Assembly (NCBI GenBank): GCA_035508655.1 | Contig: DATJMP010000123.1 | Location: 6,386 to 70,385, forward strand | Direction of reading: 5' to 3' | DNA: 64,000 nt | From: Bryobacteraceae bacterium | GTDB lineage: Bacteria; Acidobacteriota; Terriglobia; Bryobacterales; Bryobacteraceae | Shown here: in pieces, positions 4,975 through 54,239 of the stretch | How positions within the stretch are numbered: position 1 is the stretch's first letter | Layout of the letters: the number at the start of each line of letters is the position of its first letter | Translations under genes and position numbers: made by a program | Notes under the pieces: model-generated | Told to the model about the DNA's origin: nothing | Database searches by the model: none | The model's input: only the letters and a program-made list of their open reading frames with translations

Positions 4975-6237
4975 CTATCTCACGTCGATCCGCACGGGTT
5001 CCAGCCGGGGCGTGAGAAGCTGCACAATGACAAGCGCGGTCAAGTAAGCGGATCCGGCGATCGCGAACAGCACCACGTAGCTCACCCGTCCCGCGAGCAA
5101 CTGCAAGAGCACCCCGCCCGCCGAACCCACCATGCCGCCGAATCCGACGACGCTTCCGATCGCCGCCTTCGGGAACAGGTCCGACGTAAGCGTAAAGAGA
5201 TTGGCCGACCAGCCCTGGTGAGCCGCCGCCGCCAGCCCCACCAAAGCCACCACGGCCCACACGCTGCCCGCATGCGTCACCATCGCCACCGGCGCCACTG
5301 CCAGCGCGCACACCAGCATGGCGGTCTTGCGGGAGAAATTGACGCTCTTCCCCCGCTGGATCATCACCGAGGAGAGCCATCCGCCGCCCACGCTGCCGAT
5401 GCAAGATATGGTGTAAATCGCTACCACCGGTCCGCTGCTCGCACCCAGCGTCAGGCCGAAGGTGCCTTGCAGATAGCGCGGAATCCAAAAAATATAGAAC
5501 CACCACACCGGGTCGGTGAGGAACTTACCGATGGCGAACGCCCATGCCTCTTTCCGGCCTACCACGCCGATCCACGGCAGTCTGCCCACCTTCTCCGGCG
5601 GGTCGCTTTGGATGTGCGCCAACTCCGCCTCGGAAACCCGCGGGTGGCGCTCCGGATTGCCGTACAGCTTCAGCCAGAACAATAGCCACACCACGCCCAG
5701 CGCGCCGGTGGCGAAAAACGCGCCTCGCCAGCCGACCGAAGCGTAGAGCAACGGCACCACCGCCGGCACGGCGATCGCGCCAATCGGCGCACCGGCATTG
5801 AAAATGCCCGCGGCCAGCGCCCGCTCGTTCTTGGGGAACCATTCCGCCACCGTCTTGATGCAAGCCGGAAAATTCGCCGATTCGCCCAAGCCCAGAAAGA
5901 ACATGGCGAGGCCAAAGGTGGCCACCGAATATGCCGCGCCCGGCGTCATCGCCGCCACGCTCCACACGCTGATGGCCACGGCAAAACCGCGGCGGGTTCC
6001 CAGCTTATCCGTCAACCAGCCCGCTGTCACCAGCCCGATAGCATAGGCGACCTGGAACGCCGCTGTCATGTAGCTGTACTGCTGCCGGTTCCAGCCGATG
6101 ATCGCTTCGAGAGTTTTCTCGAGGTAAGCCAGCACCCCGCGGTCGACGTAAGCAATTACCGTGGCGAGCAGCAGAAGCGTGCAGATCGTCCACCGAAAAC
6201 GCGACGATGCGGGCCGCTCGATGGCTGACGGTGCCAT
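4975..6237 (-). CDS. MFS transporter (anion:cation symporter / hexuronate-transporter-like)
   Basis: 420 aa, about 12 hydrophobic helices. N-terminal YVDRGVL and GWLTDKLGTRRG loop motifs are typical of ExuT-like MFS proteins. Confidence 0.85.
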   Translation of the reverse strand: MAPSAIERPASSRFRWTICTLLLLATVIAYVDRGVLAYLEKTLEAIIGWNRQQYSYMTAAFQVAYAIGLVTAGWLTDKLGTRRGFAVAISVWSVAAMTPGAAYSVATFGLAMFFLGLGESANFPACIKTVAEWFPKNERALAAGIFNAGAPIGAIAVPAVVPLLYASVGWRGAFFATGALGVVWLLFWLKLYGNPERHPRVSEAELAHIQSDPPEKVGRLPWIGVVGRKEAWAFAIGKFLTDPVWWFYIFWIPRYLQGTFGLTLGASSGPVVAIYTISCIGSVGGGWLSSVMIQRGKSVNFSRKTAMLVCALAVAPVAMVTHAGSVWAVVALVGLAAAAHQGWSANLFTLTSDLFPKAAIGSVVGFGGMVGSAGGVLLQLLAGRVSYVVLFAIAGSAYLTALVIVQLLTPRLEPVRIDVR

Positions 6238-48382: not shown

Positions 48383-49810
48383 CTAGGATGTCGGCAGCAT
48401 GTTGATCGTATCTTGGACCAGTTGGTCGAGAACGGTCAGCATCCGAGCATTGGCGTCATAAGCGTTTTGAAACTGGATCAGCAGCGTGGCTTCTTCGTCC
48501 AGCGATACACCCGACATCTGCTGCTGGATATTTTTGGCCTGGGCTACGGCCGATTGCTGCACGGTGAGGTCATTGTTGGCGGTGTCCAGCGCATCGCCTA
48601 CCTGCGCTGCCATGCTGCCGTAGAACTGGGTGAAGCTTTCGCCATCGATTTCGTCGGCGCTCGCGGTCGGATTCTCCAGTCCCGAAAGTGCCAGGGCCAC
48701 GCCGTTCGAAGACGATCCGTCGCCTGCCGCCAGTTGGTCGGCCGTGATCTCCGGGTTCACCGCCAGGCTGGCGGCAGCGTTGGTCGGGTCGCTCGCATTG
48801 TAGGTGAACAGCGCCGCCCCTGCGGCCCCGGCCGTTGTCTGCCCGCCCTCCAGCAGTTGGTTCACGCGATCCGCAAACTGTTGCGCCATCTGGTTCAACT
48901 GCCCCTGCTGGTACCCGTCGCCGATGAAAGATGGCAGCACCGAGTCGCGAAAGTTCACCAGCGCTCCCAACTGCCCGCCCGTGGTGGCTGAGGTGATGTC
49001 GGTTCCGTCGCTCGCCAGAATCTCCACCGGCGGTCGGCCGTTGCTGTTCACCGGCGGCGGCGAGGCCGGCTGCTCCATACCGGCCGAAATCTGGTATTGC
49101 TGATTCTCCACCAGCAGCGGTGTCTGGCCATTCAACAGCAGCGAAACCGTGCCATCCGGATTGTTCAACGTGGTGAAGCTCACGTACTGCGCCAACTGTT
49201 CGAGCGTGGAATGGACCTGCGCGTCCAGCCCCGAGTCGCCACGGTCCCCCTGCATGATCTGGCTGTTGTAGCTTTGTAACTGCCCCACCAGGCTGTTTAC
49301 CGTGCTGACGGTTTGCGTGATCCCGTTTTCGGCATCCTGTTCTGCCAGCGTCAGACCCGTGGCGGTCTGTTGGAAGGCTGTGGCCAGGTCGCTGGCGTCA
49401 TTCAGTACGCTCTGTTGCGACACTGCATCGTTGGGCGATTGTGCCCATCCCGAGAAGCTATCCAACAAGTTATTCAGCGCTACCGAGATGCCCGATGTGC
49501 CCGAAATATCGAACAGGCTTTGGAGGGAGGTCAAACTGTTGACCTGCTGTTGCGCCTGGCCGAGCAGCGTGGTCTGCTGTTGTACCTGCTGGTCCGCGTA
49601 CTGGTTCCGCTCGCTTTGGATCTGCCCCGCCTCTACTCCGCCGATCAGCCCTCCAGAGGGGTCGAGAGGCATTGCCTCGAGCGTCTGCACTTGAGCGGCA
49701 TAGCCCGGTGTCTGAGCATTGGCGACGTTGTTTTCCGTTACATCCAGCACGCGCTCGTAGGCGCGGAGCGCGCCTGCGGCAACCGTCATCGAACTCAGCA
49801 GGCTGCCCAT
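48383..49810 (-). CDS. flgK: Flagellar hook-associated protein 1 (FlgK)
   Basis: Trimmed to MGSLLSSMTVAAGALRAYERVLDVTENNVANAQTPGY...; C-terminal ...SGVSLDEEATLLIQFQNAYDANARMLTV. Confidence 0.9.
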   Translation of the reverse strand: MGSLLSSMTVAAGALRAYERVLDVTENNVANAQTPGYAAQVQTLEAMPLDPSGGLIGGVEAGQIQSERNQYADQQVQQQTTLLGQAQQQVNSLTSLQSLFDISGTSGISVALNNLLDSFSGWAQSPNDAVSQQSVLNDASDLATAFQQTATGLTLAEQDAENGITQTVSTVNSLVGQLQSYNSQIMQGDRGDSGLDAQVHSTLEQLAQYVSFTTLNNPDGTVSLLLNGQTPLLVENQQYQISAGMEQPASPPPVNSNGRPPVEILASDGTDITSATTGGQLGALVNFRDSVLPSFIGDGYQQGQLNQMAQQFADRVNQLLEGGQTTAGAAGAALFTYNASDPTNAAASLAVNPEITADQLAAGDGSSSNGVALALSGLENPTASADEIDGESFTQFYGSMAAQVGDALDTANNDLTVQQSAVAQAKNIQQQMSGVSLDEEATLLIQFQNAYDANARMLTVLDQLVQDTINMLPTS

Positions 49811-49814
49811 TTGG

Positions 49815-50219
49815 CTATCCTTCCACCCAGAATCGGCTCGGCCGGGCCAGCGGCGCGGGTTGCCCGCCGGCTCGATAGCCGCCGGTCCGCGCTCCCAGGT
49901 ACCCGCTCCAGCCGGAATGATATTGTTGCGCCTTCCGCAACAGAGCACCCGCCGTCTGAATCGCCCGCTGGATCCGCTTTAGCTCCCGCGCCTGCCCCAC
50001 GCCGTCGGACGCACATCCGGACCGGTCCCGTACCGCCGTCAGACAGGCAATGGCCGACTGCAAAAGCAGGGCAGTCCGGTCCAGCACTTCCGGCGCCGGC
50101 GAGACGGCCAGAGCCGCCACTTCCTCCACCGCCGCCCGCGCCGTCTCCAGGGTCCCGGCACCCTCGCCCGCGGCGGTAAATTTATCTTCGGTTTCGCGCT
50201 CCATCGCCTTTTCGGCCAA
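49815..50219 (-). CDS. Hypothetical protein in the FlgN position (possible export chaperone)
   Basis: 134-aa helical ORF between flgM and flgK. Call rests on synteny only; no sequence motif recognised. Confidence 0.45.
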   Translation of the reverse strand: MAEKAMERETEDKFTAAGEGAGTLETARAAVEEVAALAVSPAPEVLDRTALLLQSAIACLTAVRDRSGCASDGVGQARELKRIQRAIQTAGALLRKAQQYHSGWSGYLGARTGGYRAGGQPAPLARPSRFWVEG

Positions 50220-50238: not shown

Positions 50239-50550
50239 TCAGATCCCGCTGGGGCCGCCCGCGAGGGCTTCGGAAATCATCCCCCGGCTGATCGCCTGGG
50301 AGTTCGGCTGGTAGGTCCCGTTCTGTACCTGCTCTGCCAGCGCCTGGATCCGGGATGCGTGACTGGTCTGGTCGGAAGCGGCCGCGCGCGCCAACGCCCC
50401 GATAGTGTTGGAAAAGTCTACGCGGTCTTCCCCACTGCTCGCGGTTCCGGATGCCTGGGCAGAGCTGAAACCGGTGGAACTCTGACTTTCCCGCACTCGG
50501 GACGATTCCTGGCCGGAGCTGCCCGACACGCTGCTGTCATAAATTCGCAT
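50239..50550 (-). CDS. flgM: Anti-sigma-28 factor FlgM
   Basis: 103 aa, Ser/Gly-rich and disordered N-terminal half. C-terminal ...RIQALAEQVQNGTYQPNSQAISRGMI is typical of FlgM. Confidence 0.8.
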   Translation of the reverse strand: MRIYDSSVSGSSGQESSRVRESQSSTGFSSAQASGTASSGEDRVDFSNTIGALARAAASDQTSHASRIQALAEQVQNGTYQPNSQAISRGMISEALAGGPSGI

Positions 50551-51744: not shown

Positions 51745-52371
51745 ATGAGCGATGCCCCATTTGACGAACCCCGCCTGGCAATCACTCGCGTGTACACCCG
51801 GCAGGGCGACGCAGGCAATACCATGCTGGCCGGCGGACAGCGGGTGCCCAAGGACAGCCTGCGGATCTCGGCATACGGTACCGTAGATGAGTTGAACGCA
51901 TTCGTCGGCGCGGCCCGCGTGACCGCCGCTACCGACCCCCGGCTGGCAGAACTCTCAGGAATTCTGCTGCGTGTGCAGCACGAGCTGTTCAATCTGGGTT
52001 CGATCCTGGCTACTCTGCCCGAGGACGTGCATCCGCGACAGGCCCGCGTCACCGAAGCCGAAGTCGCGCGGCTGGAAAGCGAAATCGACCGTATGAACGA
52101 AGTGGTTCCGCCGCTACGCTCGTTTGTGCTCCCCGGCGGGTGCCGTTTGAATGCCGAGCTGCACATTTGCCGCACGGTTTGCCGCCGCGCGGAGCGGCAG
52201 GTGGTCACGCTGTCGCGGGCGGAGCCCGAGCCGCCGGAGGCCGTCCGTTACCTCAATCGGCTCGGAGATGCGCTGTTTGTCTGGAGCCGCTGGGCCAGCC
52301 ACGCTTCCGGCGCCCCAGAGACCCTGTGGGAGCCCAACCGTGCGGCCTCGGGAAGACCGGAGGGGTCTTAG
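51745..52371 (+). CDS. PduO-type ATP:cob(I)alamin adenosyltransferase
   Basis: ITRVYTRQGDAGNTML...ISAYGTVDELNAFVG...QHELFNLG...FVLPGG...HICRTVCRRAER are the family motifs. Confidence 0.9.
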   Translation: MSDAPFDEPRLAITRVYTRQGDAGNTMLAGGQRVPKDSLRISAYGTVDELNAFVGAARVTAATDPRLAELSGILLRVQHELFNLGSILATLPEDVHPRQARVTEAEVARLESEIDRMNEVVPPLRSFVLPGGCRLNAELHICRTVCRRAERQVVTLSRAEPEPPEAVRYLNRLGDALFVWSRWASHASGAPETLWEPNRAASGRPEGS

Positions 52372-52570
52372 CGTCAGCTGTCCGCTATTCAGCTTTCGGC
52401 TCGCGCGCAAAGTTCTGGTAGGGGCCACGCATGCACGACCCGCGACGGGACGTCGGGAGATTCGCATCGCCTCGCACTGGAAGACAGCGGCCCCTGAACC
52501 AACCCAACCCAAGCTGATAGCTCACGGCTGAAAGCCGATCTCTTGTTCCGCGATATCATGAACGTGTGAC

Positions 52571-53524
52571 ATGGCGCTGATCGCGATCTCGGGCCATCCC
52601 GGATGCCGCTTCGAGGAAGTGGCGCGCATCACCGCGCAGCGTCTGGGGTTCGAATTGCTGACCCAGGCCCGCATCCGGCATCTCACCGGTGAGGAGTTTG
52701 GCGCGGAAACCGCCATCCCCCATAAAGCGTGGGCGAGCCTGGCGACGTCTGTGCTTGCCCGTATCGCCACCGAGCATCACATCGTGTACTGCGCACTGGG
52801 CGGCGAGCTGCAGGCGCGCCACTTCCCCGGTATGCTGCGCGTCCACGTGGTCGCGCCGGAGAGCGTGCGCATCGGCAACCTCATGCTGGACCGGCGCCTG
52901 GAGCGTCCCGCCGCGCGTGAGCTTTTGCTTCAGATGGAGGCCGCGGAGCGCGAGGATCGGAAAGCCAAATTCGGCAAAAGCAAGGCGACCGCCGAAATGT
53001 TCGACCTCGTATGCAACGCCGAATCCCTCAGTTCCGAACAGATTGCCGGTCTGGTGGCAGCAGCGGTCGAATCCGGCGGCTTGAAGGAGCGAGGCCTGCT
53101 CTCCCATGCCGCCGAAGCGCAACTCCAGTTTCAGATGCGCCTGAATCTGGCCCGCTACGGCATCGTTCCGCCGGATAAAATCACGCTGCGGCAGAAGATC
53201 TTCGCGCATCAAAGCGAGGAGATGTTCGCCAATCTGCTGGATTTCTACCGCATCGCCTGGGAGTACGAGCCGCGCAGTTTTCCCATTCAATACGATCGGG
53301 ATGGCCACGCGCTCGAGTCCTTCACACCCGATTTCTATCTTCCCGAATTCGACCTCTACGTCGAACTCACCACCATGAAACAGGCGCACGTGACGCGCAA
53401 GAACCGCAAGGTCCGCCTCTTGCGGGAACTGTACCCGCAGATCAATATCCAGGTCTTCTATCAGAAGGATTTCGAAAACCTGATCTTCAAGTATGGGCTG
53501 ACGGAACGGACGGTTCGGGTATGA
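52571..53524 (+). CDS. Fusion protein: cytidylate-kinase-like (Cytidylate_kin2-type) N-domain plus T7-endonuclease-I-like PD-(D/E)xK C-domain
   Basis: N-domain: IAISGHPGCRFEEVARITAQRLGFELL ... LRVHVVAPESVRIGNLM ... FDLVCNAESLS. C-domain: SEEMFANLLDFYRIAWEYEPRSFPIQ...SFTPDFYLPEFDLYVELTT...RKNRKVRLLRELYPQINIQVFY, which is collinear with my recollection of T7 gp3 (sgLEdk..L...IkFEYE...YTPDFLLPNGIFVETKG...RKKHLLIREQHPELDIRIVF). Confidence 0.8.
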   Translation: MALIAISGHPGCRFEEVARITAQRLGFELLTQARIRHLTGEEFGAETAIPHKAWASLATSVLARIATEHHIVYCALGGELQARHFPGMLRVHVVAPESVRIGNLMLDRRLERPAARELLLQMEAAEREDRKAKFGKSKATAEMFDLVCNAESLSSEQIAGLVAAAVESGGLKERGLLSHAAEAQLQFQMRLNLARYGIVPPDKITLRQKIFAHQSEEMFANLLDFYRIAWEYEPRSFPIQYDRDGHALESFTPDFYLPEFDLYVELTTMKQAHVTRKNRKVRLLRELYPQINIQVFYQKDFENLIFKYGLTERTVRV

Positions 53525-54057
53525 CAGGCGCGCCCCCTCCCGGTCTGGATCGCGTGCTCTTCACGGAAGAGCAGATCGCGGCGCGCGTGGCCGAAGTGGC
53601 GGCGGCCATCTCGCGAGATTATCAAGGCCGGACGGTGAAACTGATCGGAGTGCTGAAGGGATCGGTCTTCTTTCTCACCGCGTTGGCACGCCACCTCCGC
53701 GTGCCCGTGAAAATCGACTTCCTCGGCATTTCCAGCTTCTCCAACCGCAGCGGCGCGCCCGGCGTGGTGCGCATCGCCAAGGACCTCGATGACAGCATCG
53801 AAGGCGAAGACGTGCTGCTTGTGGAGGACATTGTCGATACCGGCTTCACCCTGCGCTACCTTCTGCAGACGCTGGCCGGCCGCGCCCCCAATTCGCTGGC
53901 CGTCTGCACCTTCCTCGACCGCAACTCCCGCCGCATCGTTCAGGTTCCCGTGGACTACCGCTGCTTCGAGATTCCCGACCGCTTCGTGGTCGGCTACGGC
54001 CTCGACTACAATCAGCTCTACCGGAATCTGGGGTATGTGGCCGTGATGAAGCCCTAG
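53521..54057 (+). CDS. hpt: Hypoxanthine phosphoribosyltransferase (paralogue 2)
   Basis: 178 aa; ...LIGVLKGSVFFLTALARH...VLLVEDIVDTGFTLRYL...FVVGYGLDYNQLYRNL. Its ATG overlaps the upstream stop as ATGA. Confidence 0.9.
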   Translation: MTGAPPPGLDRVLFTEEQIAARVAEVAAAISRDYQGRTVKLIGVLKGSVFFLTALARHLRVPVKIDFLGISSFSNRSGAPGVVRIAKDLDDSIEGEDVLLVEDIVDTGFTLRYLLQTLAGRAPNSLAVCTFLDRNSRRIVQVPVDYRCFEIPDRFVVGYGLDYNQLYRNLGYVAVMKP

Positions 54058-54062
54058 AACCA

Positions 54063-54233
54063 GGGATTGGGGATTCGGGATTAGGGATTGGGCCGTTGAG
54101 GACCGCGGCGGGGCGCCGCGATGAACGTGCACGTGCGGTCCTCAGGCAGGTGGTTCTCGACCGGGCCGCGCGCACAGGTTCGGAGTGCCTTACACTCCAT
54201 CGCCCTAATCCCCAATCCCTAGTCCCCAACCCC
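54063..54233. repeat. Large nested palindromic element with G-rich heptad arms between convergent genes
   Basis: Arms gggattggggattcgggattagggattgggc (54063-54093) and gccctaatccccaatccctagtccccaaccc (54202-54233), about 26/31 complementary. Inner 10-bp stem 54097-54106/54135-54144; a 7-bp stem cgcggcg/cgccgcg; a ggagtg/cactcc hairpin at 54182-54198. Confidence 0.75.
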
Positions 54234-54239
54234 TTCCGT

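Follow-up and report, generated by a model that had tools for sequence, protein, structure and literature searches.

What does a protein that ends in a relative of a phage junction-resolving nuclease have to do with purine salvage? The question is raised by a 64,000-nt stretch of DNA from a Bryobacteraceae bacterium (assembly GCA_035508655.1, contig DATJMP010000123.1, positions 6,386 to 70,385 of the forward strand; hereafter, the window), in which a gene fusing a cytidylate kinase-like domain to a domain resembling phage T7 endonuclease I (endo I) overlaps the start of a gene for hypoxanthine-guanine phosphoribosyltransferase (HPRT). HPRT is well known both as a salvage enzyme and as a target of (p)ppGpp, yet we know of no description of a dedicated protein partner for it. 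An earlier note on this DNA, made by inspection of the letters, had singled out the two genes as a module with a possible role in nucleotide-linked stress, defense or toxicity. We report here that the conserved unit is the endo I-like domain together with hpt, that this linkage spans at least four or five phyla, and that the domain represents an undescribed, widespread subfamily with an HPRT partnership. Our literature search found no description of the domain-hpt pairing, and neither a curated family nor a paper on this architecture came to light, in line with what the earlier note had stated.

An endonuclease I-like domain is genetically linked to HPRT

The pair is laid out in the window as follows:

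52571..53524, plus strand: fusion gene (317 aa) encoding a Cytidylate_kin2-like domain, a linker helix and an endo I-like domain, from the list of open reading frames (ORFs)
52571..53080, plus strand: N-terminal domain of nucleoside monophosphate (NMP) kinase fold, Cytidylate_kin2 type, approximately residues 1-170, from Pfam and Foldseek
53192..53500, plus strand: C-terminal endo I-like PD-(D/E)xK domain, approximately residues 208-310
53216..53371, plus strand: active-site-equivalent residues E216 (53216-18), D254 (53330-32), E265 (53363-65) and T267 (53369-71)
53521..53524, plus strand: ATGA overlap of the fusion-gene stop with the hpt2 start, visible in the letters themselves
53521..54057, plus strand: hpt2, encoding the partner HPRT (178 aa)

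Both ORFs are found where the earlier note had placed them, and the translational coupling that it had proposed is visible in the ATGA overlap, where the TGA of the fusion gene overlaps the ATG of a complete hpt. The start of the fusion gene is fixed by ATGGCGCTGA, which is conserved in every one of the aligned related loci, and both GC content and base composition of the pair are unremarkable.

Homologs of the fusion number more than 3,900. The top 120 show 78-100% identity, and nearly every one has a length of 317 aa; the top homologs come from Bryobacteraceae and are named 'cytidylate kinase family protein'. In contigs sampled at one genome per species, 204 stretches encode a relative of the fusion, and the counts given for Bryobacterales refer to the best 80 of these 204, nearly all of which carry the label of Bryobacterales, of Solibacteraceae or of some wider acidobacterial group. 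An hpt2 ortholog (81-90% identical) lies directly downstream of the fusion gene in 80/80 of these loci, and the pair is single and syntenic across the Bryobacterales, with 75-91% protein identity. The pair is a vertically inherited core locus of the whole order, neither sporadic nor mobile. Four distant fusion-bearing clades show the same fusion-hpt arrangement with entirely different flanks, so that the neighborhood conservation the earlier note had proposed to check extends well beyond the order.

When 1.84 billion representative proteins were searched exhaustively, family members turned up in 1,836 clusters. Full-length fusions reach down to 33-40% identity in these clusters, which also hold many stand-alone proteins of ~110-220 aa that match residues 207-312 only, at 55-65% identity. 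At least 7,975 proteins, with no Pfam domain, belong to this stand-alone family. Further architectures combine a MerR helix-turn-helix (HTH) with the domain (P0233), or a kinase-like domain with the domain across a long linker. The MerR fusions place the endo I-like domain at the position usually occupied by the effector-binding domain of MerR regulators. On contigs of the Armatimonadota type, a phosphoribosyltransferase (PRTase) gene directly follows the stand-alone domain gene, and in Thermomicrobium roseum the domain and HPRT form a single 333-aa ORF (WP_012643103.1).

To these we added 80 loci from a scan of metagenomes for which actinobacteria-like and MerR-fused members served as seeds. 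A same-strand hpt follows in 60/80, and among the 20 loci lacking it 12 have less than 300 nt of downstream DNA and another five only 327-469 nt; across informative loci, hpt follows the domain gene in ~95%. Where both genes are present (155 loci), 153 loci hold them as separate ORFs and two as direct domain-HPRT fusions. The separate pairs with a placeable hpt start number 150, and the two genes overlap in 108 of them and lie within 30 nt of each other in a further 24. Overlap, spacing and fusion show the two genes to be co-transcribed and usually translationally coupled, and occasionally fused into one polypeptide.

The family is absent from GenBank phages and viral contigs and from mobile plasmids, the only plasmid match being a non-mobilizable 0.9-Mb replicon. 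In lineages that abound in soil and thermal habitats, Bryobacterales, Armatimonadota and Thermomicrobia among them, thousands of genomes carry this extremely conserved small domain directly before, or fused to, HPRT. Cultured carriers make the pair experimentally tractable: T. roseum DSM 5159 is confirmed here as one, and others are probably to be found in cultured Bryobacterales, for example Bryobacter or 'Ca. Solibacter usitatus'.

Annotation of the family is systematically in error: stand-alone domains are named HPRT, and fusions are named 'cytidylate kinase' despite lacking the Walker-A lysine. Several stand-alone proteins, some of ~120 aa, bear the Joint Genome Institute (JGI) label 'hypoxanthine phosphoribosyltransferase' with no PRT domain, a label that is explained by the hpt-adjacent and hpt-fused gene contexts and was probably transferred from fusions like the T. 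roseum gene.

The domain is a lysine-less relative of T7 endonuclease I

T7 endo I is a domain-swapped homodimer that resolves four-way DNA junctions and for which K67 is essential. The homology to this enzyme that the earlier note had proposed is borne out by profile and sequence searches. T7 endo I is hit in a phmmer search against the PDB (3cae, E=1.8e-4) and is the only significant solved relative when the family profile is used (E=4.8e-6); a Holliday-junction resolvase family of PHROGs matches at 2.8e-7, and PHROGs endonuclease families are matched as well. The Pfam model Phage_endo_I (PF05367) is not reached at its gathering score of 29.1 bits, either with the full protein (16 bits) or with the domain alone (19.2 bits), and even at E<=1 it is matched by 5/39 stand-alone members. 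No Pfam or NCBIfam model covering the endo I-like domain was found.

Structure prediction combined with Foldseek, another check that the earlier note had proposed, yields an NMP-kinase fold for the N-terminal half and PD-(D/E)xK matches for the C-terminal half. The full-length AlphaFold2 model of the fusion has a mean predicted local distance difference test score (pLDDT) of 86.3; since NMP-kinase matches swamped the full-length model in Foldseek, a separate model of the domain was used (pLDDT 83.5). The secondary-structure elements of this model follow one another as H, E, E, E, E, H, E, H, in agreement with the alpha-beta-beta-beta-alpha-beta core of the PD-(D/E)xK superfamily; core and element order are shared with T7 endo I. 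The leading Foldseek matches of the domain model are all PD-(D/E)xK nucleases, with weak E-values (best 2e-3), and include R2 RLE, Bax1, PvuRts1I, PspGI, Vsr and TnsA. T7 endo I itself is absent among these structural matches, presumably because its chains are domain-swapped.

The domain carries the signature FAHxSE..F...LDFY.I.W.YEP..F...G...E.FTPDFYLP..DLY.ELTT..Q..VT.KNRK, and shares with T7 endo I the FEYE/YEP and TPDF(L/Y)LP motifs. Alignment to 2pfj and 1m0d places E216, D254 and E265 on the T7 residues E20, D55 and E65, and T267 on K67, just as the earlier note had read the site: acidic residues kept, lysine replaced by threonine. An alignment of 65 sequences from across the lineages described above places all 27 invariant columns in the C-terminal domain of ~100 residues. 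Across the wider set of family loci, E216, E233, D254, E265, T267, T268, Q271, K277 and K280 are invariant in 175/175, and N278 and R279 nearly so; the position equivalent to K67 is thus Thr in all 175. The carboxylates equivalent to E20, D55 and E65 are therefore shared with T7 endo I throughout the family, whereas the catalytic K67 has become an invariant Thr-Thr and an extra invariant helix, Q...VT-K-N-R-K, has been added. We considered K270 as a relocated catalytic lysine and rejected it, because this position varies among K, R, Q, N and S in the diverse sample.

Viral contigs hold only distant relatives (25-48% identity) in which the E/D/E triad is kept and in which, wherever the 267 position aligns, it is Lys in 42 cases and Thr in none; 0/80 of these viral relatives lie next to hpt. 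GenBank phages contain only annotated endo I genes, at ~30% identity. The family-wide Thr, set against the viral Lys and the lack of hpt beside it, marks the HPRT-linked family, as judged by sequence, as a cellular branch of its own within the endo I lineage, with E...PD...E-L-T-T...Q..VT-K-N-R-K as its defining pattern. The domain clearly descends from a phage junction-resolving nuclease, and its active site has been remodelled. It differs from T7 endo I (gp3; PF05367; 1fzr, 1m0d, 2pfj, 3cae) also in being cellular, vertically inherited, linked or fused to hpt and below the Pfam threshold.

The kinase-like domain is a lineage-specific addition

The N-terminal half of the fusion passes the Pfam model Cytidylate_kin2 (PF13189) with 46.7 bits against a gathering threshold of 28, and does not reach the CMP kinase equivalog TIGR02173 (24.2 bits versus 102.1). 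Its best Foldseek matches are 3hdt and 3fdi (E from 1e-10 to 2e-8, target-normalized TM-scores 0.77-0.86), both of which are structural-genomics structures of uncharacterized putative kinases, and our literature search found no characterized function for the Cytidylate_kin2 family. The degenerate P-loop that had been pointed out earlier is real: the loop reads ISGHPGCRF, has neither the Walker-A Lys nor the Thr and fails the GxxxxGK[ST] test, while relatives read ISRxPGxxGEE. A non-canonical, lysine-less P-loop is also typical of distant full-length relatives (ITISRQxGSGG), in comparison with which the Bryobacterales loop is further degenerate.

The 65-sequence alignment has no invariant column in the kinase-like half. 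Because stand-alone, MerR-fused and HPRT-fused forms occur without it, this half is dispensable for the conserved pair; it is an optional, lineage-specific addition. The adjacency of fusion and hpt to which the earlier note had pointed is real, with the refinement that the meaningful unit is the endo I-like domain plus hpt.

The partner is an ordinary HPRT

By sequence, the partner is an ordinary hypoxanthine-guanine phosphoribosyltransferase. The hpt2 product scores as a full HPRT (TIGR01203, 200.9 bits versus a cut-off of 150) and matches the T. tengcongensis enzyme (HGPRT; 1r3u) over residues 4-178 (E=3e-58). The phosphoribosyl pyrophosphate (PRPP) motif VLLVEDIVDTGFT is intact and the FVVGYGLDY motif is also present, as in bacterial HGPRTs generally (TIGR01203; 1r3u, M. 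tuberculosis 4rht), over the full length of the protein. What sets hpt2 apart from these is the endo I-like gene that precedes it and the presence of a second, canonical hpt in the same genome:

36454..36999, minus strand: hpt1, unlinked second HPRT paralog, a comparator outside the module

The earlier note had described hpt2 as an extra copy on the strength of this gene, which is real, with the correction that it lies on the minus strand. The hpt1 product scores 210 bits with TIGR01203, is 51% identical to that of hpt2, and is encoded next to genes for a methyltransferase and a beta-propeller/phosphoesterase protein. It carries the canonical Tyr and Lys, whereas hpt2 has F73 and R134 where solved HPRTs have Tyr (loop SSY) and Lys (purine-O6, LDK). 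This F/R pair is found in 79/80 Bryobacterales partner HPRTs, and Y/K predominates in partners elsewhere; the change may reflect relaxed or shifted constraints, or subfunctionalization once a second hpt (hpt1) was present.

We also considered whether the partner HPRTs form a specialized subfamily, and rejected the idea: in a distance tree the characterized HGPRTs of T. tengcongensis and M. tuberculosis nest among them (mean identities 55% and 52%), and the F/R changes are lineage-specific. The hpt1 product has 49% mean identity to the partner HPRTs, no closer than the characterized HGPRTs. Of the claim of an extra HPRT, then, the second gene copy stands and the special class does not. Weak NCBIfam matches of hpt2 to PyrR models reflect only the common PRT fold.

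Possible functions of the pair

The explanation that we tentatively favor, at a little short of an even chance, is a housekeeping two-gene operon in which an 'HPRT-associated endo I-like' domain, as a Mg2+-dependent module, would form a complex with an ordinary HPRT. The pair is vertically inherited and looks like a housekeeping partnership rather than a defense or toxin module. On this explanation, the domain protein and HPRT would form a stoichiometric complex. The domain would keep the three metal-binding carboxylates of T7 endo I, would have exchanged the essential lysine for the invariant Thr-Thr, and would have gained the invariant basic helix (VT-K-N-R-K); taken together, these features point to a Mg2+-dependent module that would bind, and possibly cleave, phosphodiester or phosphate groups with altered chemistry. 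Such a module would most likely act on nucleic acid; the active site of HPRT would sense the state of purines, PRPP or (p)ppGpp, and the module's action would be coordinated with that state or gated by it. The lysine-less Cytidylate_kin2 domain, added N-terminally in Bryobacterales and some other lineages, would probably have an accessory nucleotide-binding or scaffolding role. If the proteins do work together, the pair would amount to a new control layer on purine salvage, or to a nucleic-acid transaction coupled to purine status. A more far-reaching form of this idea, which we consider possible but rather doubtful, is that the lysine-less domain is an obligate subunit giving HPRT a second, nucleic-acid-linked function, either as a nuclease or binder gated by purine, PRPP or (p)ppGpp, or as a two-protein analog of PurR/PyrR in phyla without those regulators. 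Were the HPRT-subunit reading true, it would imply a new widespread family and an HPRT holo-complex not known before, present in Acidobacteriota, Armatimonadota, Chloroflexota (Thermomicrobia) and further lineages from the environment.

Several points weigh against the favored explanation. The complex of domain and HPRT is a prediction from the genes, and the nature of its substrate or ligand is entirely inferred. Three informative metagenome loci (L148, L159 and L174), each with more than 700 nt of downstream DNA, lack hpt and are clear exceptions to the linkage. Operon linkage of hpt with an unrelated gene occurs elsewhere, in tilS-hpt-ftsH, and therefore linkage alone need not mean joint function. 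In that operon of Firmicutes and Actinobacteria, hpt is likewise translationally coupled to an upstream gene acting on nucleic acid, with no explained rationale for the coupling; the upstream gene product there differs, TilS being a PP-loop ATPase. Finally, with the lysine indispensable to T7 endo I gone, the domain may cleave nothing, although its invariant carboxylates would argue against a purely passive binding role.

This last consideration bears on an unlikely alternative, in which the endo I-derived domain binds DNA or RNA and does not cleave it, HPRT acts both as enzyme and as sensor of PRPP, nucleotides or (p)ppGpp, and the two control purine-related genes in the manner of PurR or PyrR. 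The family-wide loss of the catalytic endo I Lys would fit, as would the fact that the K67A mutant of T7 endo I still binds junctions (2pfj, with Ala at 67 in the alignment). In B. subtilis PurR a DNA-binding domain precedes the PRT domain, and the T. roseum fusion has the same order, with a nucleic-acid-binding domain before the PRT domain; P0233 joins a MerR-type HTH to the domain, four metagenome loci encode one beside the pair, and the PyrR-model matches of hpt2 point the same way, though weakly and only through the common fold. The likeness to B. subtilis PurR, PyrR and GfcR nevertheless concerns a possible way of working only, that of a nucleic-acid-binding module joined to a PRPP- or nucleotide-binding protein of PRT fold: the DNA-binding parts are non-homologous, the partner HPRTs look fully catalytic by their sequences, and three carboxylates invariant across phyla are unexpected in a passive binding domain. 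Neither a conserved operator nor a leader RNA was found, since Rfam gave nothing upstream and conservation there is limited to a promoter-like box. Another account, which we likewise regard as improbable, is that of an active structure-specific or repair nuclease of variant active site, merely co-transcribed with a housekeeping hpt in an operon of convenience. It has in its favor the homology to a junction-resolving enzyme with retained metal ligands, the exclusively PD-(D/E)xK character of the top Foldseek domain matches, the convergent mutM beside the fused gene in T. roseum, and the co-transcription of hpt with the unrelated tilS in many bacteria. An operon of convenience is harder to reconcile with two independent single-ORF fusions, with stop/start overlap in most pairs and with a linkage that survives complete turnover of the flanks across phyla; moreover, Lys67, essential in the homolog, is absent, and no other repair gene is recurrently linked in a census of 132 neighboring ORFs.

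If the ligand were not nucleic acid at all, the domain could be a small-molecule phosphohydrolase helper of HPRT, its carboxylates, Thr-Thr and K-N-R-K helix binding Mg2+ together with a compound of phosphate or pyrophosphate, for instance so as to hydrolyze pyrophosphate (PPi) and pull the reaction forward, or to act on PRPP, nucleotides or alarmones. The linked or fused enzyme, HPRT, has Mg-PRPP and PPi among its substrates and products; the site is remodelled rather than lost (E216, E233, D254, E265, T267, T268, K277, N278, R279 and K280 being invariant or nearly so), and some lineages add an accessory domain of nucleotide-kinase fold. We nonetheless consider this very unlikely, as so strong a basic helix and a fold of this kind typically belong to proteins that bind nucleic acid, we know of no PD-(D/E)xK protein acting on small molecules, and the case is purely one of inference. 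Least credible of all is the nucleotide-linked defense, stress-toxin or toxin-antitoxin-like module of the earlier note. PRTase toxins do exist in defense systems, and the two overlapping genes make up a small cassette that combines a PRTase with a domain of nuclease fold; weak PADLOC matches link hpt2 to PsyrT and ShosT (E ~0.03) and the domain to HEAT_CxxC_PD-DEXK (2e-5). These matches to PADLOC-DB 2.0 are generic to fold or motif, however, and the check that the earlier note had suggested matched no system. The pair is single-copy, syntenic and order-wide at the protein identities given above, with normal composition and neighbors that are not defense genes; phages and viral contigs hold only the distant, Lys-bearing endo I relatives, and the sole plasmid match is non-mobilizable. 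Toxin-antitoxin hallmarks are likewise missing, with a single locus per genome fragment examined, 55-65% domain identity across phyla and 27 invariant columns. The partner HPRTs are indistinguishable from housekeeping HGPRTs and, because they are not a special class, the pair is largely the ordinary hpt context of its clade, an outcome that the earlier note had itself named as speaking against its proposal.

Putative promoter and 3' boundary

Two further elements flank the pair:

52554..52559, plus strand: -10-like box TATCAT, 11 nt before the fusion-gene ATG, identified by conservation
54059..54234, no strand assigned: inverted-repeat element separating hpt2 from a convergent histidine-kinase gene

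Most of 21 Bryobacterales upstream regions share the conserved block GCGCGnTATnATGAGCTTGTGACATGG, and the DNA farther upstream is not alignable. The block GCGCGnTAT(C/G)ATGAGCTTGTGACATGG directly precedes the fusion start (52548-52573 in the window, ~5975-6003 in loci L001-L078), and its TAT(C/G)AT box is kept at 11 nt ahead of the ATG in most Bryobacterales loci. A consensus promoter scan upstream of the fusion gene found nothing; the conservation of the -10-like box indicates that it is likely the pair's own promoter. No Shine-Dalgarno sequence is present between this box and the ATG, and the spacing suggests a very short or absent leader, that is, a leaderless or near-leaderless transcript. 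A riboswitch or leader RNA responding to purine, PRPP or ppGpp was considered for the upstream region and rejected, as an E-value scan with Rfam gave no relevant match and conservation is limited to the -10-like box.

The inverted-repeat element is 175 nt long, with 37-nt arms built of GGGATTN heptamers and an inner perfect 10-bp hairpin (54097-54106 / 54135-54144). All four matches to its repeat pattern in the 64-kb window fall inside the element, with none expected by chance, and the sole Rfam match of the repeat is a spurious microRNA family far below threshold. The element closes the pair on its 3' side and may serve as a terminator in both directions or be a small repeat element.

Neighboring genes

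The 132 neighboring ORFs of the census, filtered by composition and assigned by Pfam, include no universal third gene beside the pair; the recurrent families are lineage-specific:

CsoR-type repressor: 12 loci
ABC transporter: 6 loci
HEAT-repeat protein: 4 loci
MerR: 4 loci
Cytidine deaminase: 2 loci
PNP: 1 locus

The 12 loci with a CsoR/RcnR-type metal-sensing repressor (Trns_repr_metal) fall among L096-L145 and belong to one high-GC lineage, in which a gene for a ~140-aa membrane protein also recurs directly downstream of hpt (e.g., L099, 4113-4532). In one lineage of the Armatimonadota type (L085-L087, 4890-8343), the pair is followed by overlapping genes for a double-ABC ATPase and two BPD_transp_2 permeases, a layout typical of nucleoside/sugar importers that suggests a salvage operon there. 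The fused gene of T. roseum (NC_011961.1, 368419-370265) is convergent with mutM, encoding the Fpg glycosylase, and overlaps its 3' end, with a cluster of merA and ferredoxin genes upstream; the mutM adjacency may be fortuitous or may point to a connection with the repair of damaged bases.

In the window itself, the neighbors of the pair are flagellar-looking ORFs, a sigma-54 activator, a heavy-metal-type two-component system and a cobalamin gene. The last of these encodes a PduO-type cob(I)yrinic acid a,c-diamide adenosyltransferase (51745-52371, plus strand; TIGR00636, 179.9 bits) and lies upstream of the fusion, as it does in most of the 80 Bryobacterales loci, where the spacing varies over 0.1-4 kb; the synteny is conserved, with no functional tie to the pair that would be obvious. 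Among the flagellar-looking ORFs, one on the minus strand at 48383..49948, 5' of the sigma-54 activator, reads as a FlgK-like hook-associated protein, and a small one at 50239..50550, also on the minus strand, as a FlgM-like anti-sigma factor, both readings being taken from the translations only.

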